A stretch of DNA of 64,000 nt from Dehalococcoidia bacterium (GCA_965221895.1 CBDCSX010000002.1:1595366-1659365), one strand, 5' to 3'; positions 13,241-63,974 are shown, counted from the first letter of the stretch. Translations and numbers: made by a program. Notes: generated from the letters alone by a model not told the origin.

Positions 13241-13272
13241 TCGCCCAATCCCACAACAAGGGGGTTCCTGCT

Positions 13273-27973: not shown

Positions 27974-29554
27974 ATGGCAGATGTTATTATTCGAAACGGT
28001 AGAATTATTGATGGGGCGGGGAACCCCTGGTATCACGGCGACGTGGCAGTCTCGGGCGGGGTAATATCAGCCGTTGGGGAGGTAATGGAGTCCGCGCCGA
28101 CGATCATCGACGCTCAGGGTCTCTGCGTCTGTCCTGGCTTCATCGACATGCACTCCCACCCGGACCTTACGCTCTTCTACAAGGACGTGGAGGACTACAA
28201 GCTGCGGCAGGGGGTCACCACGGAGGTCGGCGGCAACTGCGGGTTCACCGCCGCGCCCCTCAGCGACGCCACCGCCGACGACCTTCAGAGTTATACCGCC
28301 TTCATCACGCCTCCCAGTGGGGTAACGTGGGACTGGCGCACCTTCAGCGAATACCTGAATGCGGTGGAAGAGTCCCGCCCCGCCACCAACCTGGCGCCCC
28401 TGGTCGGCCAGGGAACTGTTCGAATCGCGGTTATGGGCTTCGACGAGCGCGCGCCAACGCCCGACGAGCTTCGAGAGATGCAAGCTCTTGTCCAAGAGGC
28501 CATGGAAGCCGGCTCTTTCGGCATCTCAACCGGCCTCATCTACGTCCCGGGGGCCTACGCCGCAACGGAAGAGATTGCCGCTATGGCCCGGGTCGCATCC
28601 CAGTTCGGCGGCTTCTACGCCACTCACATGCGAAACGAGGGCGACGACCTGATGAAGTCCATCGAAGAGACCCTGACCATCGGACGAGAGGCGAACCTGC
28701 CCGTCCAGATATCCCACCACAAGGCCACGGGAAGCGCCAATCACGGCAAGGTTTCCCAGTCTCTGGAACTTATCGGAGAGGCCCGGCGGCAGGGCATGGA
28801 CGTCACCGTGGACCAGTACCCCTACGCCGCCGGCAGCACCACCCTGCAGGCCGTGCTGCCCCCGTGGGCCCAGGAAGGGGGCGTTGACCGGGTGGTAGCC
28901 CGACTTCAAGACCCCGAAACCCGGGCTGTCGTAGAGGAGGAGCTACTCAACGAAAAGGGAGAGACTCGCATCGGCGGCGCACTGGAGAACATCCTAATAA
29001 CCACGGTGAAGTCGGACGCCAACCGCCGGTTCGCCGGCCTTACCATCGGAGAAATCAGCGACCTTCGTAACAGCTCGCCGGTGGATGCCGTCCTTGACCT
29101 GCTGGTGGAGGAACGCTGCGCCGCAGGCATGGTGGTCTTCTCCATGGACGAGGCCGACGTGCGGACGGTGATGGCCAGCCCCCACACCATGATCGGCTCT
29201 GACGGGCTGTTCCAGCTGGGCAACCCCCATCCACGGATCTACGGCACCTATCCCCGCATCCTGGGCCGATATGTTCGGGAGGATGGACTGCTCACCCTGG
29301 AGGAGGCGGTGCGAAAGATGACGTCCTTCCCCGCCCAGCGGCTCGGCCTGCACAACAAGGGGGTGCTGCGTCCGGGGGCCGACGCGGACATCGTGGTCTT
29401 TGACCCCGATACTGTTATCGATCGGGGAACCTTCCGGGACCCCAACCAGTATCCCGTGGGCATCGAATACGTGCTCGTCAACGGATGCGTCAGCGTTTCC
29501 GAGGGGCGGTTTACGGGCGAAACAGCGGGGCAGGTTTTGCGCAAGGGACGGTAG
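27974..29554 (+). CDS. N-acyl-D-amino-acid deacylase (D-aminoacylase), amidohydrolase superfamily
   Basis: 'IIRNGRIIDGAGNPWYHGDVAV..GFIDMHSHPD' and the overall D-aminoacylase architecture. Confidence 0.8.
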   Translation: MADVIIRNGRIIDGAGNPWYHGDVAVSGGVISAVGEVMESAPTIIDAQGLCVCPGFIDMHSHPDLTLFYKDVEDYKLRQGVTTEVGGNCGFTAAPLSDATADDLQSYTAFITPPSGVTWDWRTFSEYLNAVEESRPATNLAPLVGQGTVRIAVMGFDERAPTPDELREMQALVQEAMEAGSFGISTGLIYVPGAYAATEEIAAMARVASQFGGFYATHMRNEGDDLMKSIEETLTIGREANLPVQISHHKATGSANHGKVSQSLELIGEARRQGMDVTVDQYPYAAGSTTLQAVLPPWAQEGGVDRVVARLQDPETRAVVEEELLNEKGETRIGGALENILITTVKSDANRRFAGLTIGEISDLRNSSPVDAVLDLLVEERCAAGMVVFSMDEADVRTVMASPHTMIGSDGLFQLGNPHPRIYGTYPRILGRYVREDGLLTLEEAVRKMTSFPAQRLGLHNKGVLRPGADADIVVFDPDTVIDRGTFRDPNQYPVGIEYVLVNGCVSVSEGRFTGETAGQVLRKGR

Positions 29555-29707
29555 CACCGCCGCGAACTCTCCCTCTCAATTGGCGGACATTTTCATCAAT
29601 ACGACTGCACGCAAACCTTTATAGTTGCGGTATATTGTCATATATTGACATGATTCAACATTTACCGCATCATGGCTTGAAAATCTCTTGCACCGTAGGA
29701 AGCAGTC

Positions 29708-30199
29708 TTGGAAGTCAACGACACACCATCGGCGCTGATGTCCCTGCCACAACTGGCCCGATACCTGGCCATGAAGGAGCGCACCATCTATGACTGGGCC
29801 CAATCAGGCAAAATCCCTGCGTTCAAGCTAGGCGCCACTTGGCGGTTCCGTCGGTCAGAGATAGACGCGTGGCTGGAGACTCAGCGGGTAGGAGTCGACG
29901 TCGCCTCTCTCCGCGCACCCCTGGTACCGCCGGTGCAACCCCCGTTGACGGCGTGGGAAGTTCGCCGGCAGAAGGAGGAAGCTCACCGGCAGCTAGTTGA
30001 GGCCTGCCGAAAGGAAATTGAGATGGTCATCCGCGACGAGAGCCGAAGCGTGTTTGTTATTGACCAATTTACCTACCAGTTCGGGGCCGACGTGGTAAGG
30101 GAAGTGGTGGAACAGCTTCGAAAGGAGAAGCTAATCACTGTTTCAGAGCACCGGGGACGAGACGGAGAGAAAGTCAAAGTTATTGGAAGGAGGAACTGA
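29708..30199 (+). CDS. Excisionase-family (AlpA/Xis-like HTH_17) DNA-binding protein with a C-terminal extension
   Basis: 'LPQLARYLAMKERTIYDWAQSGKIPAFKLGATWRFRRSEIDAWLE'. An AT-rich region containing the palindrome TGTCATATATTGACA lies upstream at 29625-29655. Confidence 0.65.
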   Translation: MEVNDTPSALMSLPQLARYLAMKERTIYDWAQSGKIPAFKLGATWRFRRSEIDAWLETQRVGVDVASLRAPLVPPVQPPLTAWEVRRQKEEAHRQLVEACRKEIEMVIRDESRSVFVIDQFTYQFGADVVREVVEQLRKEKLITVSEHRGRDGEKVKVIGRRN

Positions 30200-30200
30200 A

Positions 30201-30722
30201 GTGACATTTCTGGGATTAGGTAAGCCAAGGAAGCTCGAAGATCTCAAGATTGACGACCTCCGAAAGGAGCGAGCGCAGCAGGAGATAAAGCAGGATATTC
30301 TCTTGACGGCCTTGCGGCGGGCCCAAAAGGAGTACGACCGCCTGTTGGAGGTGGCGTCGGAGCCGGGGATAAACGATGCGGCAAGGAACGTGGCGGCCTA
30401 CCGGATGAGCCACGCCTCCAAGCGAAGGGGCAGGGCCGAGGCCGACCTGTGCCGGGTTATAACTCGAATGACTGTGCTGGATTCTGCCATCGACAACATC
30501 AGTATGAAGATGGACCTGCAGAAGCGCGGCGTTTGGAAACAGATCAACGACCTTGATAAGGAAACCTTGGTTGAGCAATTGGATGCCTTCGTCGTTAGGA
30601 CAAAAGCGGCAGACGACAAGTTAGAAGCCATGACTGAGGTGAACGTTGTCTTCCACCGTGGACCTGAATTCGACCGGGCCAGAGCCGCTATCGAGGAAGC
30701 GGCCAGCGAGAAGATCGACTAG
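30201..30722 (+). CDS. Coiled-coil hypothetical protein, with a GTG start 7 nt after GGAGG and 1 nt after the upstream stop
   Basis: Charged heptad-like sequence. Tight translational coupling to the genes on either side. Confidence 0.5.
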   Translation: MTFLGLGKPRKLEDLKIDDLRKERAQQEIKQDILLTALRRAQKEYDRLLEVASEPGINDAARNVAAYRMSHASKRRGRAEADLCRVITRMTVLDSAIDNISMKMDLQKRGVWKQINDLDKETLVEQLDAFVVRTKAADDKLEAMTEVNVVFHRGPEFDRARAAIEEAASEKID

Positions 30723-30742
30723 CTCGGAAGCGCGGACATCTC

Positions 30743-33259
30743 TTGAGACAGGAAGAACATGACACTTTAATCCTGCGTCCGGGCCGGCCCACTGGCGGGC
30801 TATTCGGCAAGTCGCTGACCGTCGGTCCCTACCAGGTTGGCATTGTCGTCCGGGACGGCGAACTGCAGCCTCCCTTCTCGGAAGGCACTAGAAGGCTGCC
30901 GAGAGGCCACGCGATGGAGACCTACGTGGCCTCAACAGCACCGTTCAATCTGGTCTTCTGGCTTGCCGACCCGGGCGATCCGGAAAGACCGGCGCAAGGA
31001 CTCTCGCTGGATCAGCCCGCACTCACCGCCGACGGACTGCCCGTCACAGGCCGTATGGAACTCACGCTATCCGTCACATCCGAGTATGCCGCCCGGCTGC
31101 TGCGACTGAGGAGAATGGGCCAACGCGAGATCAGGGCGAGCGACGTCTCCAACGCCATCAGGGGCGAACTGGTTGCCAAGGTGCTGGCTCTGGAACTGCA
31201 TCGCTACACGTCCGACGAGTTGCGGGGCAACCGAGCCCCTCTCCAAGACATACACGGCTCCATCAATACGGAGCTAGCCTCGACTATCTCGGGCTATGGC
31301 CTCCGTCTGGACAATTTCAACGTCAGCTGGGGCCTTACGCTCCAAGAACGGGAACATATCAAAGAGGCTCGGCACAGGAGCGCCATACGGGACATCGAGC
31401 GAGAGGGGGAGTTGGAGCAGGCCAGGTTGAGAGGGGAACCGGCAAGGAACGCCGAAACCATCGAACAAGCGCCGCCTCCGCGCAGCGAGACATCTGATGA
31501 ACCATCAACAGATGCAGATTCGAAGGATGGCGGACAGGGCTTCGGAGGGCCATCAGAGCCAGGCAACCAAGGAGTGCAACCGAGGGGAGCATGGGATCCC
31601 AAGTGGGTACTTGCGGTGGCCGTGGTGGCAATAGTCGGACTCGCTGGCGCATTGTTATATTTCACTAGCTTGGACTCATCCGGCGCTTCTCCGGAGGAGT
31701 CCTCCGTGACAACCGCGGAACCCATGCCGATACCGCTCCAAGACCACAACTGTCCCGACTTTGAAACGCAGTCGGAAGCCCAAGACTATTATGAGCGTGC
31801 GGGAGGTCCCGATTTAGACCCGCACCGACTTGATGACGACGGCGACGGCATCGCCTGCGAAGGATTTTTTTCAGATAGATTGCCCACAGACTCGCCGCCA
31901 TCTTCAACCAGGTCCGACACCCCGACTCCTGCGCCCACTGCCGCTTCAACGGCCACACCGCCAGTTGCATCGCAGCCAATAATCATCAATGTGTCCATAC
32001 CTTCGCCAATGCAGACACCAACCGCTGTGCCGTCGCCTACGGTCACACTCAATCCAACGACTGTGCCAACCGCCGTGCCGACACCAGCGGTTACACCCAA
32101 TCCAACGGCTGCACCAACCCCCGTATCGATACCCACACCCAAGTCGTCAGAACGTACAAGGGGCGATTTGTCGTGCTTTGTACCAGAATGCTCTCGGCGC
32201 TCAGATCCGCTCAAAGACTCTTTCGACAACTTTTTGGTAGAAGCCACGTTTGTCAACCCAACTAGCACGGACGAATTCAAGTATGGCTTCACCATCGACG
32301 GCACGTTCAATAATAACGTCTCCGAGCAGATTGAGATCAGGATAACCAACGACCGGACTTGGAGGGCGTTCATCCGAAAGGTCTACCATGAATCCGCACC
32401 GGTCAACATAGACCGACGACAAATCGAAATTGACGGCGGGGAGATACCCTATCCAATCGTGAACACCAGCGCTGGAGGTTCCAACAAACTAGAGGCAACT
32501 ATTGTTGGAGACGAAGGGTGCCTTTATGTAAATTCTATTCTTATTTCCTGCTTCGACATCTCAGGCCGCTCCCTGACGAGGGGGATACTCGTATCTTCTG
32601 AGAAAGGAGATGTCCGGTATAACGGCTTTAGAGCAAGGGAAGCGATGGCAGGAACTGAGGGGCCGCTTGCGACCCCAAGTCCCACGCCCACGCCCGCATC
32701 AATACCAACTCCCATGTCGGCAGAACGTGCCAGGGGTGACTTGTCCTGCTCAGTGTCAGAATGTGCGCAACGCTCAGATCCACTCGGCATCTCGTTCGCC
32801 AACTTTTTGGTTGAGGCCACGTTCTTCAATCCGACCAGTATGGAATCATTCAAGTATGGCTTCACAATCAAAGGTGCGTCCCAGGATGACATCATTGAAA
32901 GGATTGAGATCAGGGTCGCCAACGACCGAACCTGGAGAGCGTACATCCAAAAGTCCTCCCATGAGTCCTTTCCCGTCAATTTAGATCATCGGCAAATAGA
33001 AATTAGCGGCGGGGAGATACCCGTTCCATTCGTCGACACTAACGTCGGAGGCTCCAATCGGCTCGAGGCAACCGTTCTTGGTGACGAAGGGTGCCTCTAC
33101 GTCAATGGCATTTTCATTTCCTGCTTCGACCTGTCCAACCGCGCCTTTACGAGGGACATAGCCGTATCTTCTATGCAAGGTGACGTCCTGTATACCGGCT
33201 TCAGAGCAAGGGAAGCGCTGGCAGGAACTGAGTGGCCGCTTTCCACGCCCCCTCCATAG
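30743..33259 (+). CDS. Multidomain membrane protein: N-terminal SPFH/band-7-like domain, TM helix (~aa 287-306), Excalibur Ca-binding domain, Pro/Thr linker, and 2 tandem copies of an uncharacterised ~150-aa domain
   Basis: Excalibur 'CPDFETQSEAQDYYERAGGPDLDPHRLDDDGDGIACE'. SPFH-like 'ETYVASTAPFNLVFWLADP...SNAIRGELVAKV'. Repeated domain 'LVEATF(V/F)NPTS..FKYGFTI...GCLYVN.I.ISCFD(I/L)S' at aa ~535-690 and ~715-835. Confidence 0.6.
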   Translation: MRQEEHDTLILRPGRPTGGLFGKSLTVGPYQVGIVVRDGELQPPFSEGTRRLPRGHAMETYVASTAPFNLVFWLADPGDPERPAQGLSLDQPALTADGLPVTGRMELTLSVTSEYAARLLRLRRMGQREIRASDVSNAIRGELVAKVLALELHRYTSDELRGNRAPLQDIHGSINTELASTISGYGLRLDNFNVSWGLTLQEREHIKEARHRSAIRDIEREGELEQARLRGEPARNAETIEQAPPPRSETSDEPSTDADSKDGGQGFGGPSEPGNQGVQPRGAWDPKWVLAVAVVAIVGLAGALLYFTSLDSSGASPEESSVTTAEPMPIPLQDHNCPDFETQSEAQDYYERAGGPDLDPHRLDDDGDGIACEGFFSDRLPTDSPPSSTRSDTPTPAPTAASTATPPVASQPIIINVSIPSPMQTPTAVPSPTVTLNPTTVPTAVPTPAVTPNPTAAPTPVSIPTPKSSERTRGDLSCFVPECSRRSDPLKDSFDNFLVEATFVNPTSTDEFKYGFTIDGTFNNNVSEQIEIRITNDRTWRAFIRKVYHESAPVNIDRRQIEIDGGEIPYPIVNTSAGGSNKLEATIVGDEGCLYVNSILISCFDISGRSLTRGILVSSEKGDVRYNGFRAREAMAGTEGPLATPSPTPTPASIPTPMSAERARGDLSCSVSECAQRSDPLGISFANFLVEATFFNPTSMESFKYGFTIKGASQDDIIERIEIRVANDRTWRAYIQKSSHESFPVNLDHRQIEISGGEIPVPFVDTNVGGSNRLEATVLGDEGCLYVNGIFISCFDLSNRAFTRDIAVSSMQGDVLYTGFRAREALAGTEWPLSTPPP

Positions 33260-33270
33260 CCCAATCTCTA

Positions 33271-33370
33271 GACCCCAACCAGTATCCTGTAGGCATTGAG
33301 TACGTGCGATCAACGGATGCTTCAGCGTGTCGGAGGGCGGTTTGCGGGGGAGACGGCGGGTGGGGGGGAA
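33271..33370 (+). pseudogene. Orphan, frameshifted ~95-bp copy of the D-aminoacylase 3' end (corresponding to 29436-29530)
   Basis: 'gaccccaaccagtatcctgtaggcattgagtacgtgcg-atcaacggatgc...' is ~80% identical to the gene end. The differences are mostly synonymous, plus a 1-nt deletion. Confidence 0.7.
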
Positions 33371-33448
33371 CAAGGCAAAGCAACGCCCCGGCAGGCAACT
33401 TAGCCGCCAACTTTGATTCCACCCGATCCTTCGGTGTATGATAGGTGT

Positions 33449-33652
33449 ATGGTACGCACCAACGTAGATATCGACGATCGGGCGTGCGCCGAGGTGATGC
33501 GGCGATATCAGCTATCCACCAAGCGCGAGGCGGTCAATTTTGCCCTCCGCACCCTGGCTGCGGAGTCCCTATCCTTAGCTGAGGCCCGCAACCTCCGCGG
33601 CATCGGCTGGGAGGGCGACCTGGACGTAATGCGGTCTTCATCCTCGCCGTGA
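33449..33652 (+). CDS. vapB: VapB-family antitoxin
   Basis: 'MVRTNVDIDDRACAEVMRRYQLSTKREAVNFALRTLAAE' with a 4-bp overlap onto the PIN gene. Confidence 0.75.
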   Translation: MVRTNVDIDDRACAEVMRRYQLSTKREAVNFALRTLAAESLSLAEARNLRGIGWEGDLDVMRSSSSP

Positions 33653-34044
33653 TTCTGGTCGACTCCTCAGCCTGGATAGAGTTTCTTCGAGACACGGGAT
33701 CTACGGTCTGCGAGGCGGTGGACCGGTTGCTAGGACAGGAGGTGGCCGTCTGCGACGTCATTAGCATGGAGATCCTCGCCGGCGCTCGTGACGAATCGCA
33801 CTTGGCAAGCCTACGACGCCTGCTAGCCAGGGCCGCCATGATCCGTACGAGGCCAACGGACTATGAAGACGCTGCTGCGCTCTATCGTCGCTGCCGCCGG
33901 GGAGGAGAGACCGTTCGCAAGCTGGTCGACTGTCTCATCGCCTCGGTAGCCATACGCGCTGGTGTGGCCGTTCTGCACCAGGATGCTGATTTCGACACCC
34001 TAGCCCGTCATACGAAACTGCAAGTGCACCAATCCAATCCTTAA
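33649..34044 (+). CDS. vapC: VapC PIN-domain toxin
   Basis: 'MILVDSSAWIEFLRDTGS...CDVISMEILAGAR...DCLIASVAIRAGVAVLHQDADF' PIN acidic residues. Confidence 0.8.
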   Translation: MILVDSSAWIEFLRDTGSTVCEAVDRLLGQEVAVCDVISMEILAGARDESHLASLRRLLARAAMIRTRPTDYEDAAALYRRCRRGGETVRKLVDCLIASVAIRAGVAVLHQDADFDTLARHTKLQVHQSNP

Positions 34045-42944: not shown

Positions 42945-43069
42945 GGGGGCGTACTGAATAGGGGAGAGTAGAGAGGGGAGTTCCTTCAGGCCTCGGACGC
43001 GATGTGTCAATGCCAAAGCCACAGACGGGTGAAAATCGCCGCGTTCGGCCCTTCGGCCTTAGAGTGTCG

Positions 43070-43282
43070 CTACCCTATCAATTGCAGAATGACGTTTAGG
43101 CCAGCCAAAACCAATCCAACGACGCTGATGGTAGATACCACCAACACCTTTAACGCTTTAATGTCCCCACGAACTTCGGCCAAGTCTGCTTTCGTTGCGT
43201 AGTGCTGACGATATTCGTCTCGCAACGACGACAGTTCTTCCCTAAGCTCACTTCGGGTAATGGGCTGTTCCGCCATTGCCAT
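43070..43282 (-). CDS. Small coiled-coil protein with a C-terminal TM helix (XhlA/DUF1640-like), downstream of the AbiTii-like gene
   Basis: 'SELREELSSLRDEYRQHYATKADLAEVRGDIKALKVLVVSTISVVGLVLAGLNVILQLIG'. The start was trimmed to MAMAEQ. Confidence 0.45.
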   Translation of the reverse strand: MAMAEQPITRSELREELSSLRDEYRQHYATKADLAEVRGDIKALKVLVVSTISVVGLVLAGLNVILQLIG

Positions 43283-43436
43283 TGCTATCCTCCGATACTC
43301 TCTGTACCAGAGCCTAACAAAACCGATGTGCGACGGCAAGCAGCGGTTGGCACCGGTGTTCTCTCAATTCCTCGGTTGAGTGGGCTGAGTCTCGAGTACT
43401 CCACATACTATTCGCCATGCGGGACCGTTTATGCTA

Positions 43437-44339
43437 TCACCCTCCGTAATAGCTCCTAATTCCATCTATTAACACCTTTGGAGCCGTTGCGAGGCTGATC
43501 TTCCATGCTCCAGATGCCGCCTTTTCTATCATTTTCCCTACCCAAGCCTGAACTTTCGGTCCAAATTGACCTTGAGAAGGATCCTGCTCAGTAGCAACTA
43601 TTCTTTTGAGTTCACTCAGGTCATTCTCATCGACCTTATGGCCAGCCAAGTGATTTACAAGCGATGCAATGTCACCCTTGCGAATGGGATTAGCTTGTTG
43701 TTGTACGTTTTCTCCGCTGGCTACGATGTTGTGGTCGCCATGGATATTGATGTTGAAAAGGTTCCTCACCGTCTCTTGCTTCACTTCGCCACTCTTCAGG
43801 TTTTCCGACGTGACATTGTTCTCCTGCAGGCCAAGTATGAAATCTAACAGCTTGTTCTTCACCTTATCCAGAATTCCAGCGATGTGTGAGGGGAGAATCG
43901 GCTGGTGTGCATTTACTAAAATCATGCCATCTGTCATTTGTGTTGCATCTCTAGCCAACATCACGAATTCTACAGGCCATTCCCTCTTATATTTCCCGTC
44001 CCCCTGGTTTAGCATAGCTTCAAGCTCTCCCACACCCTGGGAAAGGACCAATTTCTCAGCGAATTCCTTTACCGGGCTAGGTAGACTTTGCGTAGGAAGT
44101 GGTACCTTCCTTGCCATCGTCTGGAAGGAGCCACTGAAAGTGCCAAGATTGAGAGGGCGAGAACCTCTGTAGTTAGGCACTTTTTTCAAATCTGGGTAGC
44201 CATTGAGTTCAGAGTCAACCCATTCCCGAAATTCAGGTAACCCCAAATCGTTGGCGAGTATCTTCGCCTTCCTTAGGGTATTCGAGACACTCGCTGATTC
44301 ATCAATCAAGTCAGAGCGAATATTGTCGATTAGAGCCAT
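43437..44339 (-). CDS. AbiTii-like abortive-infection domain protein; the islet is lower in GC
   Basis: N-terminal 'LIDNIRSDLIDESASVSNTLRKAKILANDLGLPEFREWVDSELNGY' resembles the AbiTii N-terminal domain. Confidence 0.5.
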   Translation of the reverse strand: MALIDNIRSDLIDESASVSNTLRKAKILANDLGLPEFREWVDSELNGYPDLKKVPNYRGSRPLNLGTFSGSFQTMARKVPLPTQSLPSPVKEFAEKLVLSQGVGELEAMLNQGDGKYKREWPVEFVMLARDATQMTDGMILVNAHQPILPSHIAGILDKVKNKLLDFILGLQENNVTSENLKSGEVKQETVRNLFNINIHGDHNIVASGENVQQQANPIRKGDIASLVNHLAGHKVDENDLSELKRIVATEQDPSQGQFGPKVQAWVGKMIEKAASGAWKISLATAPKVLIDGIRSYYGG

Positions 44340-44526
44340 TTCTTTCCCAACCTACCTACGTTACTACTGTTCTTAATTTACCATAGTCCCCTATTCCAAT
44401 TGCCGCTTGGTGTGGCCTGTGCTACATTGCAACGTAAGCGCGACGAGATTCTTCGCTTCACTCAGAATGACATAAGTCGCGCTCGGAATGACAGTTGTCA
44501 CGCCATCCCAGCCCAAGGAGTTGAAG

Positions 44527-46278
44527 ATGACTAACGCTTACTCGGTTAAGTTTGAGCCGCATATCCCCCTGACCCTCGGAGACGGGACCATGTCCTACGT
44601 GGACGTGTTCCGGCCCGACGCTCCCGGTCGTTTTCCCGCCCTTCTCCAGCGCACGCCCTACGACAAGGGAGGGCCCGGCAGCCGCTCCGGACCCGTCGAC
44701 GCCATTCGGGGGGCCATGAACGGCTACGCCGTCGTCATCCAGGACGTTCGCGGTCGGCATAGTTCGGACGGCGAGTTCTACACCTTCGTCAACGAATCCG
44801 ACGACGGATATCACTCCGTGGAGTGGGTAGCGTCCCAGCCCTGGTGCAACGGCAAGGTGGGCATGTACGGCGTGTCCTACGTGGGCGCAACCCAGTGGCT
44901 CGCGGCCAAGGCAAAGCCCCCATCTCTGACGGCCATCGTCCCCGGCGTCACCGCCTCCGATTACCACGAAGGTTGGGCCTGGCAGGGCGGCGCCTTTGAG
45001 CTTGGCTTCAACCTTTCCTGGGCCGTCGGCCCCCTGACCGCCGCCAACTGGGGCAACCTCTCCAAACGTCTGGGCCTCCCCCAGCAGCAGCTGAACGACG
45101 TCATTCACGCCAAGGACAATCTGACCGACGGATTCCTGCACATGCCCTTGGAGGAAGTGCCTGACCTGAAGGGCGGCCTGGCTCCCTACTACTACGACTG
45201 GCTGGCCCATCCGGAGTTCGACGACTACTGGAAGAGCGTCTGCATCGCCGAGTCCCACTCCGACATCGACGTGCCCGCGCTCAACTGGGGCGGGTGGTAC
45301 GACGTGTTCCTCGGCGGCACAATCGACAACTACGTGGGGATGCGCCGACGAGGGGCGACGGAGGCCGCCCGCAAGGGTCAGCGCCTGCTCATCGGACCGT
45401 GGATTCACGGCAACTCGCCCGTTGACGTTTCGGGCCAGTTCCACTTCGGCACCCGCGCATCTTCTGCAGTCCTCGACCTGCCCGGGATCATCCTCCGCTA
45501 CTACGACCACTGGCTCAAGGGAGAGGACAACGGAGTGGCTGACGAAAAGCCGGTGCGCATCTTCGTCATGGGAGAAAACAGGTGGCGGATGGAGGATTCG
45601 TGGCCCCTGGAGCGGGCGGTGACCACCAACTTCTACCTGCATAGCGGCGGGAGGGCTAACACCCTGAACGGCGACGGGTCGCTGAGCGTGGACGCGCCGG
45701 GCAACGAGCCGCCGGACGTGTACGCCTACAACCCCCTGGACCCGGCCCCGACTCGAGGCGGCGGCCTGTGCTGCGACCCCGCATTCATGATGTCGGGCGC
45801 CTACGACCAGCGGCCTATCGAGGCTCGCCCCGACGTTCTGGTGTACAGCACGCCGGAACTTGAACGAGACACGGAAGTCACCGGCCCCGTGACGGTCACT
45901 CTGTACGCCGCCAGCTCCGCCGTGGACACGGACTTCACCGGCAAGCTGGTGGACGTTGAGCCCTGCGGCTGCGCCCGAAATCTAACCGACGGCATCATAC
46001 GCGCCAGATATCGTAAGCCGCGACAGCCTGCGAGCCTCATCCAACCCGGTGAAGTCTACGAGTACGCCATCGACGTCTGGGCCACCAGCAACGTGTTCAA
46101 GAAGGGACACCGGATTCGGTTGGAGATTTCCAGCAGCAACTTCCCCCGGTTCGACCGGAACGCCAACACCGGCGGGGACATAGGCGCGGGGACGCGGCTG
46201 GTTCCGGCTTTGCAGACAGTGTTCCACGACGGGGAGTATCCGTCGCACGTGAGCCTGCCGCTGGTGCCGAGGGGGTGA
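44527..46278 (+). CDS. CocE/NonD family hydrolase (S15 X-Pro dipeptidyl-peptidase fold)
   Basis: 'ALLQRTPYDKG', 'GVSYVGATQW' (GxSxxG), and a C-terminal beta-sandwich domain. Confidence 0.8.
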   Translation: MTNAYSVKFEPHIPLTLGDGTMSYVDVFRPDAPGRFPALLQRTPYDKGGPGSRSGPVDAIRGAMNGYAVVIQDVRGRHSSDGEFYTFVNESDDGYHSVEWVASQPWCNGKVGMYGVSYVGATQWLAAKAKPPSLTAIVPGVTASDYHEGWAWQGGAFELGFNLSWAVGPLTAANWGNLSKRLGLPQQQLNDVIHAKDNLTDGFLHMPLEEVPDLKGGLAPYYYDWLAHPEFDDYWKSVCIAESHSDIDVPALNWGGWYDVFLGGTIDNYVGMRRRGATEAARKGQRLLIGPWIHGNSPVDVSGQFHFGTRASSAVLDLPGIILRYYDHWLKGEDNGVADEKPVRIFVMGENRWRMEDSWPLERAVTTNFYLHSGGRANTLNGDGSLSVDAPGNEPPDVYAYNPLDPAPTRGGGLCCDPAFMMSGAYDQRPIEARPDVLVYSTPELERDTEVTGPVTVTLYAASSAVDTDFTGKLVDVEPCGCARNLTDGIIRARYRKPRQPASLIQPGEVYEYAIDVWATSNVFKKGHRIRLEISSSNFPRFDRNANTGGDIGAGTRLVPALQTVFHDGEYPSHVSLPLVPRG

Positions 46279-46319
46279 TTGCCCGACCTCTCGTTTAACT
46301 TGCCTTCAGGCCAACATTT

Positions 46320-47576
46320 GTGCGAAACTACCGAGCTATGAGCAGCGACTTCATAAAGCGGAAATCTCTCGTATTTGTCCTCGCGGCGGTGGTGGTGGGG
46401 CTTGTGGCTTTTGTGGGGGCGTGCGTGCTTGTGTATGAAACCGGGTGGTTGAGCAACGAGGAATACGACTGGAGGGAGGAAGTGACAGGCTCGCGCCCTT
46501 TTGTTCCCCCTCAGTGGTCTTCTGACGGCACGAAGATGATAATAGATTGGTGGGAGATCCCCTACCTAGTTGACACTGGTCCTGACCCACCAATGCTCAA
46601 GCGAATAGTCGCAGGAAATTACCAGGAACGCTTCTATCCCCGCATTTCTCCAGACGGATTGCGGATAGTCTTCTCAACGGAGCGACACGCGAGTTACGGA
46701 CTTATGAGGGAGATTGGAGTCTCCAACCTTGACGGGTCTGAATATCGACGACTAACCAGAAATAGATATTTTCAATCAGCCCCGGCGTGGTCTCCCGACG
46801 GCTCCCACATCGCCTTGTTCTCCAAACCTCAAAGTGACGAGGAAACCTACTACAGATTTCAAAGCTTATATGTGATTTCAGCCAGAGGCTCCAGCCCACA
46901 GAAACTTGTTGAGTGGGTTCGGGCTTTCGGCCCTCCTGTCTGGTCTCCCGATGGCCGCAAGATTGCATTATTGAGCCGCCCAAGAGCAACATCGGGTGAC
47001 GGCATTATCTACGTTATCGACCGAGACGGATCTAACGCGATCAAAATTCCTGGGGCTTCCAGCCAACCAGCCTGGTCTCCCGACGGAAGCTCTATAGCTT
47101 TTCTGCGTGGAGAAAAACGCGAATCCCTACATGTCGTCAACCCGGACGGTTCCGGGTTGCGGAAGCTAGTCGATTTGGACCCCGACACTTTACTAAGACG
47201 GAACTGGTATCCGGAACTTTATTTGTCTTGGTCTCCGGACGGTTCGGAGATCTTACTGCGGGACTACCCTTTCATTTTGGTCAAAGCCGATGGTACGGAT
47301 TACCCTGAGGGAGAATCACCATACGCCGTATTTGCCGATTCGCAAGATTGGCGCAGAGCCTACGCCTCCTGGTCTCCGGACGGCTCAAGAATTGCCATCA
47401 CTGTAGAGCGAATGGGTGAATTCGGGCCCATTGCTGGCGATGCCGTTCTCCTCACCATGGCGCGAGACGGGTCAGACAAGCGGGTGCTGGTAAGGCACGG
47501 CCATGAATACAGACCCTATGCCGTTCCCAATGAGCCGTGGGAGGGAGAAGGGGAATGGGTGTGGCATTCTCCGTAG
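46320..47576 (+). CDS. TolB-like (PD40/WD40-like beta-propeller) lipoprotein, paralog 1
   Basis: Lipobox 'AFVGAC' and repeated 'WSPDGS.IAF' blocks. Ends '...VPNEPWEGEGEWVWHSP'. Confidence 0.7.
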   Translation: MRNYRAMSSDFIKRKSLVFVLAAVVVGLVAFVGACVLVYETGWLSNEEYDWREEVTGSRPFVPPQWSSDGTKMIIDWWEIPYLVDTGPDPPMLKRIVAGNYQERFYPRISPDGLRIVFSTERHASYGLMREIGVSNLDGSEYRRLTRNRYFQSAPAWSPDGSHIALFSKPQSDEETYYRFQSLYVISARGSSPQKLVEWVRAFGPPVWSPDGRKIALLSRPRATSGDGIIYVIDRDGSNAIKIPGASSQPAWSPDGSSIAFLRGEKRESLHVVNPDGSGLRKLVDLDPDTLLRRNWYPELYLSWSPDGSEILLRDYPFILVKADGTDYPEGESPYAVFADSQDWRRAYASWSPDGSRIAITVERMGEFGPIAGDAVLLTMARDGSDKRVLVRHGHEYRPYAVPNEPWEGEGEWVWHSP

Positions 47577-47585
47577 GGGGGAATC

Positions 47586-47709
47586 AGCCCCGGTTCGACC
47601 GAAACGCCAACACGGGAGGGGGGACGCGGCTGGTTCTCGCGCTGCAGACCGTGTTCCACGACGCGGAATACCCCTCCCACGTAAGCCTTCCCCTGGTGCC
47701 TAGGGACTA
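47586..47709 (+). pseudogene. Orphan copy of the cocE 3' end (corresponding to 46143-46278), with an in-frame 12-nt deletion and a TAA stop in the homologous position
   Basis: Would encode 'PRFDRNANTGGGTRLVLALQTVFHDAEYPSHVSLPLVPRD*', compared with cocE 'PRFDRNANTGGDIGAGTRLVPALQTVFHDGEYPSHVSLPLVPRG*'. Most of the nucleotide differences are synonymous. Confidence 0.75.
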
Positions 47710-47798
47710 ACTGAATACATACATCCGCAAGTCATCGGCTTTTGACTTGCCGTTTCGCAACGCTTGTGCGAAACTAACCATCGATAGGCGGTGGTTTC

Positions 47799-49016
47799 GT
47801 GCAACGGAAATACATTGTAGTCGTCCTGGCGTCGGTTATGGTGGGGCTTGCGGCTTTTGTGGGAGCGTGCGCGCTTGTTTATGAAACCGGGTGGTTGAGC
47901 AGTGACGATGATGTAGGATACCCTGTTGGATCTCCTCCCCTCCTGCCTCCCATATGGTCTCCTGACGGCACAAAGATAGTATTGGACTGGTGGTCAGGGT
48001 CGTACCTGGTTGAAGCAAGATACGATGGCGTAGAACTCACTAGAATCTACGTGGAAAATGAATGGGAGAGGATTTATCCCCATATCTCCCCAGACGGCTC
48101 ACGGATAGCCTTCTCAACAGGGCGGAACTCGTTTGATGTATATGACTCTGATATTCGGCTTACCGACTTAGACGGGGGCAATTATCGATATCTGACCAGA
48201 AGCAGGGGTAATCAATTTGGTCAAAGGTGGGCACCCGACGGCTCAAGAATCGCCTTTATCTCATGTCTTCGCGTTCGCAAAGATGCGGTCGAGAGGACCT
48301 GTAGCCTATACAGCATAGCTGCCAACGGTTCCGGGCCCCGCAAGCTTGTTGACTCGGTGCAAGCTACCGGGGGCATCGCCTGGTCTCCTGATGGAAGGAC
48401 GATCGCATTCTTCGGCCATGAACGGGACCAGTTAGGCGAATGGCCGAAGGCCCATTTCATATACATCGTAGACGGCGATGGTTCAAATTTGGCCAGGCTT
48501 GCAGAAGCTTCTAGTCTACCGACCTGGTCCCCTGACGGAAGCTCTATTGCTTTTCTGCAGGGAGACACCAGAGACGCATTGTTCGTCGTCGAGCCGGACG
48601 GCACCGGGTTGCGGAAAATTGCCGTTCTAGATTCCATACCAGAACGGTCTTGGTTCCCAAGAACATACTTGTCGTGGTCTCCAAATGGTTCGGAGATTCT
48701 GCTGCAGGATTATCCCTTCATCTTGGTCAAGGCGGATGGCACGGAATACCCGGAGGGGAAAGCGCCTTATGCGGTTTTTGTCGACTCAGAAGATTGGGAA
48801 CATGCCTACGCGTCCTGGGCTCCGGACGGTTCAAGGATTGCCATCACTGTCCAGCAGGCCGGCGGAAACGACCCAGATGACAGAGAAGCCTTTCTCCTCA
48901 CCATGGCGCGAGACGGGTCAGACAAGCGTGCTATGGTAAGGATCGACGAACGTGTCTATGCCGTGCCCAATGAGCCGTGGGAGGGAGGGGGCGAGTGGGT
49001 GTGGCATTCGCCGTAG
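47799..49016 (+). CDS. TolB-like (PD40) lipoprotein, paralog 2
   Basis: ~60-65% identical to paralog 1, with N- and C-termini nearly identical. Confidence 0.7.
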   Translation: MQRKYIVVVLASVMVGLAAFVGACALVYETGWLSSDDDVGYPVGSPPLLPPIWSPDGTKIVLDWWSGSYLVEARYDGVELTRIYVENEWERIYPHISPDGSRIAFSTGRNSFDVYDSDIRLTDLDGGNYRYLTRSRGNQFGQRWAPDGSRIAFISCLRVRKDAVERTCSLYSIAANGSGPRKLVDSVQATGGIAWSPDGRTIAFFGHERDQLGEWPKAHFIYIVDGDGSNLARLAEASSLPTWSPDGSSIAFLQGDTRDALFVVEPDGTGLRKIAVLDSIPERSWFPRTYLSWSPNGSEILLQDYPFILVKADGTEYPEGKAPYAVFVDSEDWEHAYASWAPDGSRIAITVQQAGGNDPDDREAFLLTMARDGSDKRAMVRIDERVYAVPNEPWEGGGEWVWHSP

Positions 49017-49020
49017 GGGG

Positions 49021-49105
49021 AATCAACCACGCTTCGAGGTGAACGCCGACATGGGCGGGAACATGGGCGGGGAGACGCGGCTGGTACGAACGCTTGCAGT
49101 CCTGG
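49021..49105 (+). pseudogene. A second, more diverged orphan fragment of a cocE-like 3' end
   Basis: 'cgcttcgaggtgaacgccgacatgggcgggaacatgggcggggagacgcggctggtacgaacgcttgcag' is ~75% identical to cocE 46148-46225 and retains the 12 nt that the 47586-47709 copy lacks. Confidence 0.55.
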
Positions 49106-49123
49106 GGATAAACGCCTCAGACT

Positions 49124-49540
49124 ATGGTAGGCTCAGAATCAGGGACAAGTGATTTGGGATTCTTCACAGTTCGTAAAATTTGGCCGGCGTTACTCTTCTT
49201 GCCTACTGGAGTCGGGATCGCACTCGCCTTCACCTTACTGCAATCCATCGATACATGGCTTCAAATTCTGGTTGCGGCGATAACAATGGGGACTTCTTTT
49301 CTTGCTGGGGTGTTCTCAACGGGTCTGGGGATTGCGTTACTTCTGCCTGTTGTTGTGCTGGCTAGTCTTTTGGTGGCTTTCAGACTTTTCGGGGCGCCGT
49401 CTACTGACGTTGAACCTATAGGTTTCGCGATTCTACTTTCTCTCATCTATGGAGGTGTGGCGTACTTTGCCTTCGGGGCGGGATGGATAGTGCGCGGGTT
49501 GCTTGTCGGATTCCACGAGGGAAATAACCGGCAACGTTAG
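49124..49540 (+). CDS. Small polytopic membrane protein, hypothetical; lower GC; true start uncertain
   Basis: 3-4 predicted TM helices. Confidence 0.4.
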   Translation: MVGSESGTSDLGFFTVRKIWPALLFLPTGVGIALAFTLLQSIDTWLQILVAAITMGTSFLAGVFSTGLGIALLLPVVVLASLLVAFRLFGAPSTDVEPIGFAILLSLIYGGVAYFAFGAGWIVRGLLVGFHEGNNRQR

Positions 49541-49630
49541 AGCGGCAAACTCCCTCGTTTGACTTGCCGTTCTGCCGATGGTAGCGTTCAAACATAGGGG
49601 TACTCGCCCCATCCACTTTCCTAACGGAGG

Positions 49631-50089
49631 TTGTGCCAGGTGTACACCAAGAAAATCCTCGGCCTGGAAGAGAGCCAGGCCGCCATTGCCGCCATGATTG
49701 CCGAGTTCCAGAAGAATCCGGAGAACCCGCCCGCTGCTTTTGCAGTGGTGGACGAAGTGGGGCATCTGCTGGCGTACGCCCGCACCGACGGTTCCCGCCC
49801 CATCATCTCCCGGAACGCCATCAAGAAAGCGTACACCGCCGCCCTGCGGGGCATGACCACCGAGACCTTCTTCGAGGAGATGAACCATCGGGGTTGGCGT
49901 GTAGGCGACATGGGAGACCCTATGCTTATCGCCGTTCCCGGCGGCGTGCCGGTCATTGACCCGTCGGACGGCGCGGTCCTGGGTGGCGTGGGCGTCGCCG
50001 GCCTTCCCCCAGGCCCCGGCGACGACGACATTGCCGAGGTGGGCGTCAAGGCTACGGGCTTTTCGCCAATCCCCATTAAGCCCGGCTAA
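49631..50089 (+). CDS. GlcG/HbpS-family heme-binding protein (DUF336), second copy
   Basis: 'AFAVVDEVGHLLAYARTDG...GGVGVAGLPPGPGDDDIA'. Confidence 0.65.
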   Translation: MCQVYTKKILGLEESQAAIAAMIAEFQKNPENPPAAFAVVDEVGHLLAYARTDGSRPIISRNAIKKAYTAALRGMTTETFFEEMNHRGWRVGDMGDPMLIAVPGGVPVIDPSDGAVLGGVGVAGLPPGPGDDDIAEVGVKATGFSPIPIKPG

Positions 50090-50189: not shown

Positions 50190-50927
50190 ATGCTGGAATT
50201 CTTCGGGCATCTTGAAAGACTCGCCTCGGACCTCTACCCGTGGCGGTGGCTCATCATGGCCATCGTCCTGCTGGTGGTCGCCGCCGTACTCCACTACGCC
50301 TACAAGCGGGGCTGGCACACCTACGCCTGGGAGCGGAGGGTGCGCTTCGGAATCATCGGCGCACCCGTGCTGGCCCTGCTGCTGTTCATCGCGTGGGACC
50401 TGGGTTCGCCCCTGTTCATCAACAAGACCGTCGAGGAGGAATTCCCCTTCGCCTTCTCCGCCCAACCGCCCGCAGAGGTGACGATGGAGGAAGTGGAGAT
50501 GGCAATGGAGGTTATGGCGAAGGTGGACTCGCCCGCAATGGAGGCGATGCCTGAGGCGATGATGATGCCCGCAGCCCCGGAAAGGCTCAAGTCGGGAATG
50601 TTCAGCGACCGGGACAGGATACACAAGGGCAGCGGCGAGGCGATAATCTATCGGGCTGAAGACGGCTCCCACCTGCTGCGGCTGGAGAACCTGAACGTCA
50701 CCAACGGGCCGGACCTGCACGTTTTCCTTTCCCCGCATACCGACCCAAGTGACCGGGACGACGTGATGTCTCCTGGATACTTCAGTCTGGGGCCGCTGAA
50801 GGGCAACCAGGGCAACCAGAACTACCCAATCCCATCGGACCAGGACGCGGCGGCGGTGGGGAGCGTCATCATATACTGCAGGCCTTTCCACGTGATATTT
50901 ACAATCGCGCCTCTGACGGAGGGATAG
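50190..50927 (+). CDS. Membrane-anchored DM13 domain protein
   Basis: 'NGPDLHVFL...LGPLKGNQGNQNYPIP...VIIYCRPFHVIF' is a DM13 signature. Two N-terminal TM helices. Confidence 0.65.
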   Translation: MLEFFGHLERLASDLYPWRWLIMAIVLLVVAAVLHYAYKRGWHTYAWERRVRFGIIGAPVLALLLFIAWDLGSPLFINKTVEEEFPFAFSAQPPAEVTMEEVEMAMEVMAKVDSPAMEAMPEAMMMPAAPERLKSGMFSDRDRIHKGSGEAIIYRAEDGSHLLRLENLNVTNGPDLHVFLSPHTDPSDRDDVMSPGYFSLGPLKGNQGNQNYPIPSDQDAAAVGSVIIYCRPFHVIFTIAPLTEG

Positions 50928-50955
50928 GGCGTCACCAACACGCGGGCGGGTCGGG

Positions 50956-51125
50956 GAGCCTGTTTCAGAAGTCGGATCTCTCCGTGAATTGGACCTTCTG
51001 GATTCCGGCTTTCGCCGGAATGACGGATCTTGGGGCCATATTCCATGTTCCCCGTCGGGGAGTCGTAGAAAATCGTCTTAACATGCTTAGCATATATCAT
51101 GGGTGAGGACTTATGAAACAGGCTC
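50956..51125. mobile_element. MITE copy 1 (170 bp)
   Basis: TIRs GAGCCTGTTTCAGAAGT...ACTTATGAAACAGGCTC. The first ~85 bp are identical to copy 2. Confidence 0.65.
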
Positions 51126-51169
51126 CACGGCCCGTCCCTATCAGAACGGGGGGTGGGGCGCCGGTTGGG

Positions 51170-51310: not shown

Positions 51311-51533
51311 CTTTAACCGTAGACGTAGCAACGCTGGATGGCCATGAGCCTGGCAGGGGCATGGACAGCGCGGAGGAGGAGTTCAGTGGAGCCTTCGATG
51401 ACGTTATGATTTCGTCTATATGTTTCATGGAAGGAAGGGTAAAGGGGAGTGCGGGTTAGTGGCAAGGAGGAGTTGTCACTATTGGGAGGAATGAGGCGGG
51501 TTGGGATGATTTGGGTGAGAGGGCTGGTTTAAA

Positions 51534-51705
51534 GAGCCTGTTTCAGAAGTCGGATCTCTCCGTGAATTGGACCTTCTGGATTCCGGCCTTCGCCGGAATG
51601 ACGGGATTAGAGGCCATATTACCAAATATAGAATTAGAATCAGCGTCGATAATTGTCTTGCCACGCTTAACATAAACCATAGGTTAGGACTTCTGAAACG
51701 GTCTC
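51534..51705. mobile_element. MITE copy 2 (172 bp)
   Basis: TIRs GAGCCTGTTTCAGAAGT...ACTTCTGAAACGGTCTC. Confidence 0.65.
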
Positions 51706-51774
51706 CAAGGGTCGCCCCTACGGGGGACGGGAAGTTCTGACACCTTCCTGCTAGTATGAGACAATGGCCCGGCC

Positions 51775-63263: not shown

Positions 63264-63974
63264 CTAAGGCACAATTTCACATATGAATTCGATTGCATCT
63301 TCGACTCTTGTCTTAATTGCAATTAGTTGAGGTAGCGAGAATCTTCCCGCTGGGCCATGCGCACCAGAGTTAAGGTCTTTGAACAAGACAGACAGATTCT
63401 TGATGTTTGCCTCGGTAAAATCCTCAAGGGCTTCATTGCCTAGTCCGCGGCGATCCAAACAATAATGTATTTTGGCACGTCGAGTAGGCATACCACGCTC
63501 AGTAACTTGACAGTCTGGAAACCATGACAACACCTCGCCGTCGGGAGCTCCGCAATTGAGAATATCCGCGAGGATTTCCCTTGAGCTTGTACAAAAATGC
63601 CGGGCAGCATCCGGGTTATGAGGGTTCAGAGCAAATAGGGCACCGGACCAGCGATCCTGTATGTCTACAGGATAACCCTTTAGCGATTCCGTTAACTTCG
63701 TACTAGTAAGTTCTTCATCTCCCAACTGTACTTGGCTGTTGTATCCAAGCAACGTGTTGAGCACATTCGCGCTGTTGGCAGTGTCTCGTTCAGCGAGGTC
63801 TGAGAGAAATGGATTCGCATTACTATGGTCTAGTCGTTCATACGCAGAGTTGAGAGCAATAACAGACAAATGCGACGAGGTATAGCTGATGGGGATTGTT
63901 CGAGAAGAAAGACTCTTTAGGGCGGATCGTAGTCGGGATCTGTTGGCCCTGACGCGTGCATTGTGTGCCCGCAC
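63264..63974 (-). CDS. Hypothetical protein upstream of the TIR-like gene on the same strand. It may extend beyond the window edge.
   Basis: ORF only; lower GC. Confidence 0.3.
   Translation of the reverse strand: MRAHNARVRANRSRLRSALKSLSSRTIPISYTSSHLSVIALNSAYERLDHSNANPFLSDLAERDTANSANVLNTLLGYNSQVQLGDEELTSTKLTESLKGYPVDIQDRWSGALFALNPHNPDAARHFCTSSREILADILNCGAPDGEVLSWFPDCQVTERGMPTRRAKIHYCLDRRGLGNEALEDFTEANIKNLSVLFKDLNSGAHGPAGRFSLPQLIAIKTRVEDAIEFICEIVP

Follow-up and report, generated by a model that had tools for sequence, protein, structure and literature searches.

Recombination-driven hotspots and flexible islands have been described in the variable regions of SAR11, where they lie between core genes and turn over by homologous recombination in their flanks without mobile-element genes of their own (PMC11796062). 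Homology-facilitated illegitimate recombination, as it is summarized in PMC2884548 (de Vries & Wackernagel 2002; Prudhomme et al. 2002), captures foreign DNA through one homologous anchor and one illegitimate joint. In the orphan rhs-CT/rhsI and cdiA-CT/cdiI arrays of the Rhs and contact-dependent inhibition (CDI) systems, displaced 3' fragments follow the full gene, and the locus is rearranged when an orphan recombines with the main gene (PMC3967940). Tycheposons consist of cargo blocks lying between partial 3' ends of their target gene, with the older relics farther from the intact copy (bioRxiv 10.1101/2020.12.28.424599). Here we describe a locus in a 64,000-nucleotide stretch of DNA from a Dehalococcoidia bacterium (GCA_965221895.1, CBDCSX010000002.1:1595366-1659365; hereafter the window), in which orphan copies of the 3' end of cocE, a gene for an S15-type peptidase, separate genes for TolB-like lipoproteins in the interval between cocE and glcG. 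We consider it probable that this segment is a small, integrase-free variable island, a two-unit array that was built by homologous, partly unequal, recombination and seeded by a single illegitimate joint.

The gene order and the unit structure rest on a map of open reading frames (ORFs), Pfam scans, a repeat finder and a three-way alignment. They agree with an earlier sequence-only reading, which had listed after cocE a TolB-like gene, a cocE-end fragment, a second TolB-like gene, a second and more diverged fragment, a small membrane protein gene, glcG and DM13; all of these elements are present, at coordinates that were right to within 1-2 nt (Table 1). The whole unit of cocE end, leader and TolB ORF repeats head to tail with a period of 1440-1446 nt, and each TolB stop is followed by a common short joint, TAG GGGGG(G)AATCA (junction J), after which cocE sequence begins at codon Pro552. 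The block from 46.3 to 49.6 kb has a GC content of ~52-57%, compared with ~60-68% on both sides. GC at third codon positions (GC3) is 0.57 in both TolB genes and 0.50 in the membrane ORF against 0.79-0.83 in neighbouring genes, and the hotspot comparison gives a GC3 of 0.56-0.65 against ~0.80 in the flanks. Orthologs of cocE begin with MTNAYS, and an exact-protein look-up with the cocE product of the window returned no match.

The content of this slot differs among related genomes, while the genes around it do not. Comparison genomes and loci are coded by numbers in the style L001, the window genome being WIN; they derive from a one-genome-per-species scan with the cocE protein, which gave 77 loci, nearly all from Dehalococcoidia or SAR202-type metagenome-assembled genomes (MAGs), with further loci added through look-ups of TolB homologs. 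The conserved order is SBP, cocE, slot, glcG, DM13 and MFS, and the HbpS/GlcG-like and DM13 genes are syntenic in all related loci, with 91-99% nucleotide identity among members of the clade. The slot is empty in L002, L004 and L008, where the glcG promoter (TTGACTT-N-GGTGGTAGCGTTC) lies within 94-363 nt of cocE. It holds one TolB gene and no cocE fragment in L006 and L007, and the same TolB-promoter arrangement, together with a further gene and a cocE orphan of its own, in L005; in these three outgroups the promoter stands 10-20 nt after the TolB stop, in place of junction J. One TolB gene, a distal fragment and the membrane ORF are found in L001, L060, L087 and L089, two units in the window and in L078, L079, L080, L081 and L082, and three units in L088. 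Other cargo occupies the slot of L003, an 828-aa ORF with a GKGKS P-loop-like motif that was read by eye, outside the Pfam scan. Presence/absence polymorphism with boundaries at the repeats, which the sequence-only reading had proposed to look for, is therefore what the relatives display, with 0, 1, 2 or 3 units and unit-sized gaps at the repeats. Junction J is homologous after the TolB units aligned in WIN, L078, L079, L080, L082, L088, L060, L001 and L089. Two samples contain two strains each, L078 with L081 and L079 with L080.

The membrane ORF follows the distal fragment in all members of the clade and is found only in this fragment-bearing clade. It has paralogs of 71-75% identity at an unrelated locus without orphan fragments, and paralogs of 56-75% identity have been located in four of the comparison loci (Table 1). 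These lie between Amidohydro_2 and Peptidase_M24 genes and after an alcohol dehydrogenase (ADH) gene, and the similarity begins ~15-30 nt upstream of the ORF. The motif GGGGATGACGGTGGGGGAG, which follows the distal fragment in L001, L078 and L087, was considered as the native spacer of an empty site and dropped, as it occurs twice in L087 beside GGATTCCCGC-type palindromes; it is probably repeat-element sequence.

Both orphans prove on alignment with the resident gene to be genuine cocE 3' ends, and they are in different states. The internal fragment differs from the resident end at 20 of 123 aligned nucleotides, with a changed amino acid in three codons only, so that 38 of 41 aligned residues are identical to the cocE terminus. 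The Nei-Gojobori method (NG86) gives 15.5 synonymous (Sd) and 3.5 non-synonymous (Nd) differences, corresponding proportions (pS and pN) of 0.47 and 0.04, a synonymous distance (dS) of 0.73 and a ratio of non-synonymous to synonymous distance (dN/dS) of 0.055; so few amino-acid changes were reached in none of 100,000 random-substitution simulations. The earlier proposals that this fragment differs from cocE mostly at synonymous sites, and that it came from a functional cocE, both hold in that it bears the signature of having been, or having been copied from, a functional end. Two further observations carry less than had been read into them. The stop codon is indeed retained, as TAA in place of TGA, but is uninformative alone, since frame and stop survive in ~45% of neutral simulations. 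The 12-nt in-frame deletion is also real, but no other copy found, functional or orphan, has it, among them the six further internal fragments of relatives; it arose later and is private to this genome, and so is silent on whether the two orphans arose independently. Its use as a marker of the donor allele was likewise given up, as none of the functional cocE ends among the 77 genome loci carries it, and the closest copies of the internal fragment are 84-89% identical. The distal fragment matches only the first ~59 nt of the cocE end, at 80% identity, and its 3 synonymous and 8 non-synonymous codon differences form a neutral-looking pattern, as a decaying pseudogene would. The same division is seen across the clade, where all seven internal fragments seen are full length, with an open frame and a stop, and the distal fragments (orthologs in L060, L001, L078-L082 and L087-L089) are all truncated or frameshifted.

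Internal fragments resemble functional cocE ends piecewise, and not always those of their own genome. The 5' half of the L088 internal fragment matches the functional end of L079 at 99%, the 3' half of the L081 fragment matches the functional end of the window at 96%, and the 3' half of the L078 fragment matches its own functional end at 97%. From these matches, the functional ends and the internal orphans are drawn from one pool of alleles, which accounts for the selected look of the internal fragment without any need for its expression. The functional ends themselves are unusually variable: over eight genomes the last 135 nt of cocE have a nucleotide diversity of 0.11-0.17, two to three times the ~0.055 of the gene body, and the step sits at the repeat boundary at 46144 (Fisher p down to 2e-6). 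Within the clade dS in the cocE end is about twice that of the body, yet against most of the more distant genomes it is below body dS. The cocE end is on this evidence part of the exchangeable region.

The TolB genes are still more diverse. The 19 copies found at the slot fall into 13 classes (<85% amino acid identity between classes), and between alleles dS is 0.5-1.2 and dN/dS 0.23-0.45. TolB1 and TolB2 of the window are separated by a dS of 1.18, whereas the flanking genes within the clade have a dS of 0.2-0.3, from which it follows that the units were assembled from pre-existing alleles. For the body of cocE, dS is 0.17-0.31 among fragment-carrying genomes and 0.64-1.7 to the more distant L089 and L002-L008. 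Targeted hypermutation was discarded as a source of the TolB diversity, as differences and indels extend over the whole ORF and purifying selection is evident; there is also no reverse transcriptase domain in the window, so that the locus does not resemble a diversity-generating retroelement. A scan of JGI metagenomes with the TolB alignment recovered relatives of 27-28% identity only.

Old alleles nevertheless occur in nearly identical form in different genomes. Alleles of the TolB2 type have 97-100% amino acid identity in L078, L079, L081 and L088; they take the distal place in four genomes with two units and the middle place in the genome with three, and the proximal alleles all differ. In genomes that otherwise share 92-96% identity the TolB2 bodies reach 99-100%, and the type has spread recently among strains. 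Between the window and L081 a tract of 1,136 nt (47852-48987) is identical but for one mismatch, against a background divergence of 6-7%, and divergence returns inside the ORF ends. The boundaries of the identical tract differ in the comparisons with L078 and L079, and again lie within the conserved ends of the TolB ORF. In the comparison with L079, identity is 98-99% over the last 300 nt of TolB1 and 61-78% over its remainder, and a near-identical stretch runs from TolB2 into the membrane ORF. L082 is the closest genome, with identities of 95-100% for the flanks and 99-100% for the DM13-MFS spacer, yet both of its TolB bodies are only 52-70% identical to those of the window; the divergent tract runs from ~45790, inside cocE, where identity falls from ~97% to ~91%, to 49104. 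Leaders are shuffled relative to the TolB bodies, as leader 1 of the window is of the type that forms the internal leader of L078, before the second TolB, and leader 2 is 94% identical to the internal leader of L082, which precedes a different distal allele. Units 1 and 3 of L088 agree at 99-100% over ~700 nt, and the 3' end of unit 3 matches L087; here a unit was duplicated within the array and became mosaic afterwards.

These comparisons bear directly on the possibility that plain tandem duplication in place, followed by drift and without any import, made both TolB genes and both fragments. It would give head-to-tail units with one common junction, and duplication within an array does occur, as L088 illustrates. 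As a full account we regard it as improbable. Two-unit arrays occur only in a clade whose flanking dS is 0.17-0.31, far below the value that separates TolB1 from TolB2; the same distal allele is accompanied by four different proximal alleles; the nearest genome, L082, holds two other alleles; and the differences between the internal fragment and cocE are almost all synonymous, which neutral drift of a pseudogene cannot yield. As the sole process it is already contradicted.

The sequence-only reading had offered two mechanisms, site-specific integration at an attB inside the cocE end and homology-anchored capture from relatives. In the first, each unit of TolB gene and cocE end would be a miniature integrative element moved by a tyrosine recombinase acting in trans, with newcomers displacing older units. 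A restored target gene, cargo and an orphan target end are the layout that such elements leave, sequential integrations of tycheposons push older elements inward and leave partial tRNAs (bioRxiv 10.1101/2020.12.28.424599), and one junction is common to all units examined. The remaining evidence makes this very unlikely. The statement that no integrase is present stands, as no integrase, recombinase, transposase or reverse transcriptase domain was found by Pfam in the scanned ORFs of at least 150 aa in the 64-kb window, and no integrase appears in the gene tables of ~12 related loci, including L078-L082 and L087-L089. Instead of a fixed att core with constant boundaries, the identical tracts stop at places that vary with the genome pair, within the ends of the TolB ORFs, and the independent orphans found at cocE, SBP and other genes differ in both boundary and target. 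The three linkers contain no common inverted repeat or other structured site, and the linker fold is bettered or equalled by 11 of 200 shuffles (z -1.6). A scan of the window for tRNA found none, an Rfam scan of 43-52 kb gave nothing credible, and searches of viral contigs and of phage and plasmid collections turned up nothing closely related to TolB, the junction or the cocE-end motif. Nor were the components of an integron (IntI and attI, attC palindromes, promoterless cassettes) seen, each TolB unit having its own conserved leader. Capture anchored in homology, the second of the two options, fits the polymorphism, the divergence of the alleles and the recombination tracts. The related proposal that older units have been pushed distally is sustained for the fragments, the distal one being decayed and the internal one intact, but cannot be demonstrated for the TolB bodies, which are swapped independently.

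A 13-nt motif that recurs in the spacers, TTGACTTGCCGTT, had also been noted. Exact copies do occur at 47742 and 49559, two such copies being unremarkable on their own, but the motif is promoter -35 sequence and not an att core. The native glcG promoter (TTGACT-N17-TAGCGT) has the 49559 copy as its -35 box, and empty-site relatives have this promoter as well; there it stands directly after cocE, and in L005-L007 directly after TolB. A scan with a strict sigma-70 consensus called no promoter, the glcG promoter included. At leader 2, an 11-nt inverted repeat (47764-47804; TTGTGCGAAAC / GTTTCGTGCAA) has one arm in the conserved leader motif and the other in the region of the TolB2 start codon, and could form a regulatory hairpin.

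That the internal fragment is instead retained for a function, as a translated ORF of 55-57 aa overlapping the TolB end, as a frameshift product or as a cis element for TolB expression, is scarcely credible, for although all seven internal fragments keep frame and stop and gene callers report a 55-aa ORF in L078, L079, L080 and L081, about 45% of neutral cases would do so at such divergence, private non-synonymous changes and a four-codon deletion are present, halves of fragments match the functional cocE ends of other genomes so that descent or gene conversion explains the apparent constraint, and one-unit genomes and outgroups do without the fragment altogether.

What is found at the locus are the features of a tandem array formed by unequal recombination (units of constant period, a common J, arrays of one to three units, the duplicate in L088), set in a recombination-driven hotspot with a fixed position, 13 allele classes, tracts ending in conserved flanks and foreign-like composition. 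We propose that an integrase-free island of this kind would arise in three steps. In the first, DNA lying just past a TolB stop would have been fused to Pro552 of a cocE 3' end by one illegitimate joint. The likeliest route is homology-facilitated illegitimate recombination with DNA of a relative, the left crossover falling in cocE and the right end being joined within the recipient's own cocE 3' end. The outcome would be a TolB gene between direct repeats of the last ~135 nt of cocE, in the order donor end, cargo, recipient's orphan end. Orphans always extend to the stop, with left boundaries that vary, and the microhomology at junction J is ambiguous. In the second step, whole units would be gained or lost when this repeat undergoes unequal homologous recombination with the functional cocE end, be it in its own genome or on DNA arriving from other strains; the changes in copy number and the within-array duplicate are seen among the relatives, and from them we infer the crossover. 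The internal fragment would then be a recombinant joint with sequence from functional cocE ends, and for this reason would look selected, retain its stop and be followed by a TolB leader, while the distal fragment would be an old, decaying relic. The third step can be read from the tracts. Co-occurring strains exchange TolB bodies, leaders and cocE ends by homologous recombination, which takes place in the linkers and in the conserved ends of the TolB ORFs, and many old alleles stay in circulation as a result.

Several points weigh against this scheme. The founding joint is a reconstruction, and the comparison yielded no genome in the postulated recipient order, with the small membrane gene behind cocE and TolB absent. 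Nor was a donor of the founding event found among the genomes compared; no donor with a cocE-membrane gene arrangement came to light, and the distant homologs sit at Amidohydro_2-transmembrane gene (TM)-Peptidase_M24 and ADH-TM loci with no orphan fragment. The searches covered loci rather than whole chromosomes, and a recombinase may conceivably be encoded elsewhere in the genome. Import of a misaligned unit and duplication in place with subsequent allele replacement are indistinguishable routes of homologous recombination. Single-base details are unreliable in several comparison contigs (L079, L080), which were assembled from long reads at low coverage and contain frameshifts, and the function assigned to the TolB-like cargo is one that we infer.

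The orphan ends may also serve in mobility. Rather doubtfully, each cargo gene may be accompanied on its travels by the 3' end of the core gene that precedes it, and could then loop out where the repeats recombine and enter the intact gene of a relative through a single homologous crossover, without inactivating that gene. If true, such arrays would correspond to the cassette arrays of integrons or tycheposons but would depend on RecA and need no integrase, and Dehalococcoidia, and perhaps other lineages with few mobile elements, would in general be able to gain genes in this way.

The same scar is found at other genes. L005 carries a separate cocE orphan of 83 nt, including the stop, behind a minus-strand ORF that resembles a HAD hydrolase (by eye, outside the Pfam scan). 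In the SBP-cocE slot of relatives, cargo is separated by orphan SBP 3' ends that retain the stop, of 52-53 nt (L001, L004 and twice in L089), 92 nt (L006) and 90 nt (L079); the window itself has no orphan SBP end. In the window, the 3' end of the amidohydrolase gene at 27974-29554 recurs at 33271-33360 as a frameshifted 92-nt copy (83.7% identity), behind a 3.7-kb insert that is of lower GC over most of its length. Two further cases come from other Dehalococcoidia. Behind an AMP-binding enzyme gene of L036 (12609-16382) lie a nucleotidyltransferase/HEPN pair, a NucS_C-like ORF and then an orphan of the gene's own last 54 nt, and in L065 (892-3058) a 1.2-kb insert of lower GC with a small membrane ORF is enclosed by a direct repeat (at least 190 nt, 95%) at a MoCoBD_2 gene. 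Over independent events the left boundaries of the orphans lie at 52-53, 83, 90, 92 and 135 nt, apart from the direct repeat of at least 190 nt in L065. We scanned 97 loci, with 1,065 ORFs of at least 200 aa, for copies of the last 150 nt of each gene within 8 kb downstream. The scan returned 39-47 copies in the same orientation, representing at least 13 distinct events by our count, compared with 6-14 matches, ~2-4 of them distinct and several artefactual, in each of three control configurations; the count is approximate, as many loci are syntenic and genes were called crudely. Antisense shadow ORFs of cocE (L081, L089), internally repetitive genes (L096) and a repeat family (L040) were removed as artefacts, and matches with doubtful parent ORFs (L040, L041, L043, L063) were also left out. 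The scar is far commoner downstream of gene 3' ends than in the controls, a hint that these bacteria often gain genes without an integrase and that orphan 3' ends are the marks of this route. Should the pattern extend genome-wide, orphan 3' ends would be a marker with which homology-anchored capture could be counted and dated.

The neighbourhoods of these slots contain defence and toxin-antitoxin genes. A VapB/PIN pair at 33413-34044 follows the amidohydrolase orphan, the whole structure spanning 27974-34044. Directly upstream of cocE lies a low-GC (~47%) island (42950-44450) with an 89-aa ORF and, on the minus strand, the abortive-infection gene AbiTii (43437-44339). The SBP-cocE slot of relatives is occupied by PIN_10/DUF433 genes (L078, L079, L081), a PLD/DpnI_C nuclease (L089) or other genes; it is a second slot that is variable and rich in defence genes.

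The TolB-like proteins have 405-418 aa, with an N-terminal hydrophobic helix, an invariant FVGxC motif, which we read as lipobox-like, and a seven-bladed PD40 propeller. An AlphaFold model (pLDDT 81) has its best structural matches in TolB and the propeller domains of S9 peptidases. PADLOC matched only AbiTii, and TolB and its neighbours match no known defence-system model. The persistence of old alleles, their exchange among co-occurring strains and the adjoining defence and toxin-antitoxin genes suggest that the TolB-like protein is a surface protein under diversity-maintaining selection, which would make this strongly polymorphic propeller lipoprotein a candidate for determining how these bacteria interact with phages or hosts.

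Table 1. Features of the cocE-glcG segment in the window, with the insert behind the amidohydrolase gene, the SBP orphans and the membrane ORF paralogs of related loci
Feature	Genome	Coordinates	Strand	Description
cocE-type S15 peptidase gene	window	44527-46278 (alternative 5' bound 44488)	+	Intact; 3' third is the left homology arm; Pfam Peptidase_S15 4e-58, PepX_C 6e-51
Repeat copy 0	window	46144-46278	+	Last 44 codons and stop of functional cocE; aligns with 47588-47710 and 49027-49085
Leader 1	window	46279-46337	+	Motif TT(T/G)ACTTGCC...CAAC..TTGTGCGAAACT kept upstream of every TolB allele, including fragment-free outgroups; probably a promoter or regulatory region
TolB-like allele 1 (TolB1)	window	46338-47576	+	Membrane-anchored seven-bladed PD40 beta-propeller; Pfam PD40 4e-26; ORF opens at GTG 46320, likely start ATG 46338
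Junction J, first copy	window	47574-47587	+	TolB stop TAG and GGGGGGAATCAG, fused to cocE codon Pro552
Internal orphan cocE 3' end	window	47588-47710	+	Open frame, stop TAA, 12-nt in-frame deletion
Leader 2	window	47711-47798	+	Holds the 13-nt motif at 47742-47754
TolB-like allele 2 (TolB2)	window	47799-49016	+	PD40 propeller gene; 58% amino acid identity to TolB1
Junction J, second copy	window	49014-49026	+	TAGGGGGAATCAA, homologous to 47574-47587
Distal orphan cocE fragment	window	49027-49085	+	5' part only, decaying; 80% identity over 59 nt
Small multi-pass membrane protein gene	window	49124-49540	+	Low-GC cargo; no Pfam match; GC3 0.50
Native glcG promoter region	window	49541-49630	+	-35 TTGACT 49559-49564; -10-like TAGCGT 49582-49587
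HbpS/GlcG-like gene	window	49631-50089	+	Conserved right flank of the slot; Pfam
DM13 gene	window	50190-50927	+	Conserved right flank of the slot; Pfam
Content of the 3.7-kb insert	window	29708-30199 (HTH_17 protein)		Also a 179-aa ORF and an 838-aa SPFH/Excalibur protein with two internal repeats
SBP orphan	L001	7430-7481		
SBP orphan	L004	7178-7230		
SBP orphan	L006	7720-7811		
SBP orphan	L079	2452-2541		
SBP orphans	L089	2290-2341 and 3650-3701		
Membrane ORF paralog	L092	7001-7375		
Membrane ORF paralog	L095/L096	7001-7363		
Membrane ORF paralog	L094	7001-7339		

Some further features were recorded along the window and in one relative. The DM13-MFS spacer, which has a strong positive GC skew and, apart from its near identity with L082, is largely unalignable with other relatives, contains two elements resembling miniature inverted-repeat transposable elements (MITEs), at 50944-51137 and ~51522-51717, with a common 87-nt core (93% identical); the first has 30-nt terminal inverted repeats, and both contain the palindrome GGATTCCGGC...GCCGGAATG. 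Three tandem copies of a ~115-nt repeat (80-90% identical) at 33-352 lie upstream of, and overlap the start of, an ORF at 368-1243. At the other edge of the window, an ORF at 63264-63974 (minus strand) has a 'predicted pPIWI-associating nuclease' domain (pP_pnuc_1, 8e-36), and a prokaryotic Argonaute-type system may lie just beyond. In L006 the TolB gene is split by a 2.3-kb insertion (12493-14730) with a 324-aa ORF, which looks like an IS1595-type transposase, and a gene for a secreted protein that appears collagen-like (G-x-y repeat), both calls being read from translations outside the Pfam scan.

Gene gain at fixed hotspots by bacteria with few or no mobile elements has mostly been inferred from patterns of presence and absence. 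This locus preserves the intermediates in its sequence, namely an illegitimate joint, a direct repeat of a core-gene end, arrays of one to three units and recombination tracts that can be mapped to the base. It fits the known picture of recombination-driven hotspots and flexible islands, and like the SAR11 islands it has a fixed position among core genes, a cargo of one or two genes in many diverged and functionally equivalent versions, recombination in the flanks and no integrase or transposase. It differs from them in being a tandem array of one to three units whose separators are copies of the 3' end of the upstream core gene, and in that this cocE-end repeat is itself the substrate of recombination and more diverse than the rest of the core gene. 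Orphan ends of the target gene with event-specific boundaries are predicted by homology-facilitated illegitimate recombination, in the form in which PMC2884548 relates it, and are seen here. The process is known from transformation of competent species in the laboratory, whereas here it would be recognized by its scars in uncultured Dehalococcoidia, and unlike it the later gain of units would require homologous pairing only. The Rhs/CDI arrays likewise have a full gene followed by displaced 3' ends that keep homology to it. Their orphans, however, encode a variable toxin domain with its immunity partner next, whereas the fragments described here encode the conserved terminus of a peptidase, and the variable module is a separate and complete gene for a propeller lipoprotein with a leader of its own. 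To the tandem islands of tycheposons the resemblance is in layout only, as tycheposons encode or depend on tyrosine recombinases with defined att cores, neither of which was found at the loci compared here.

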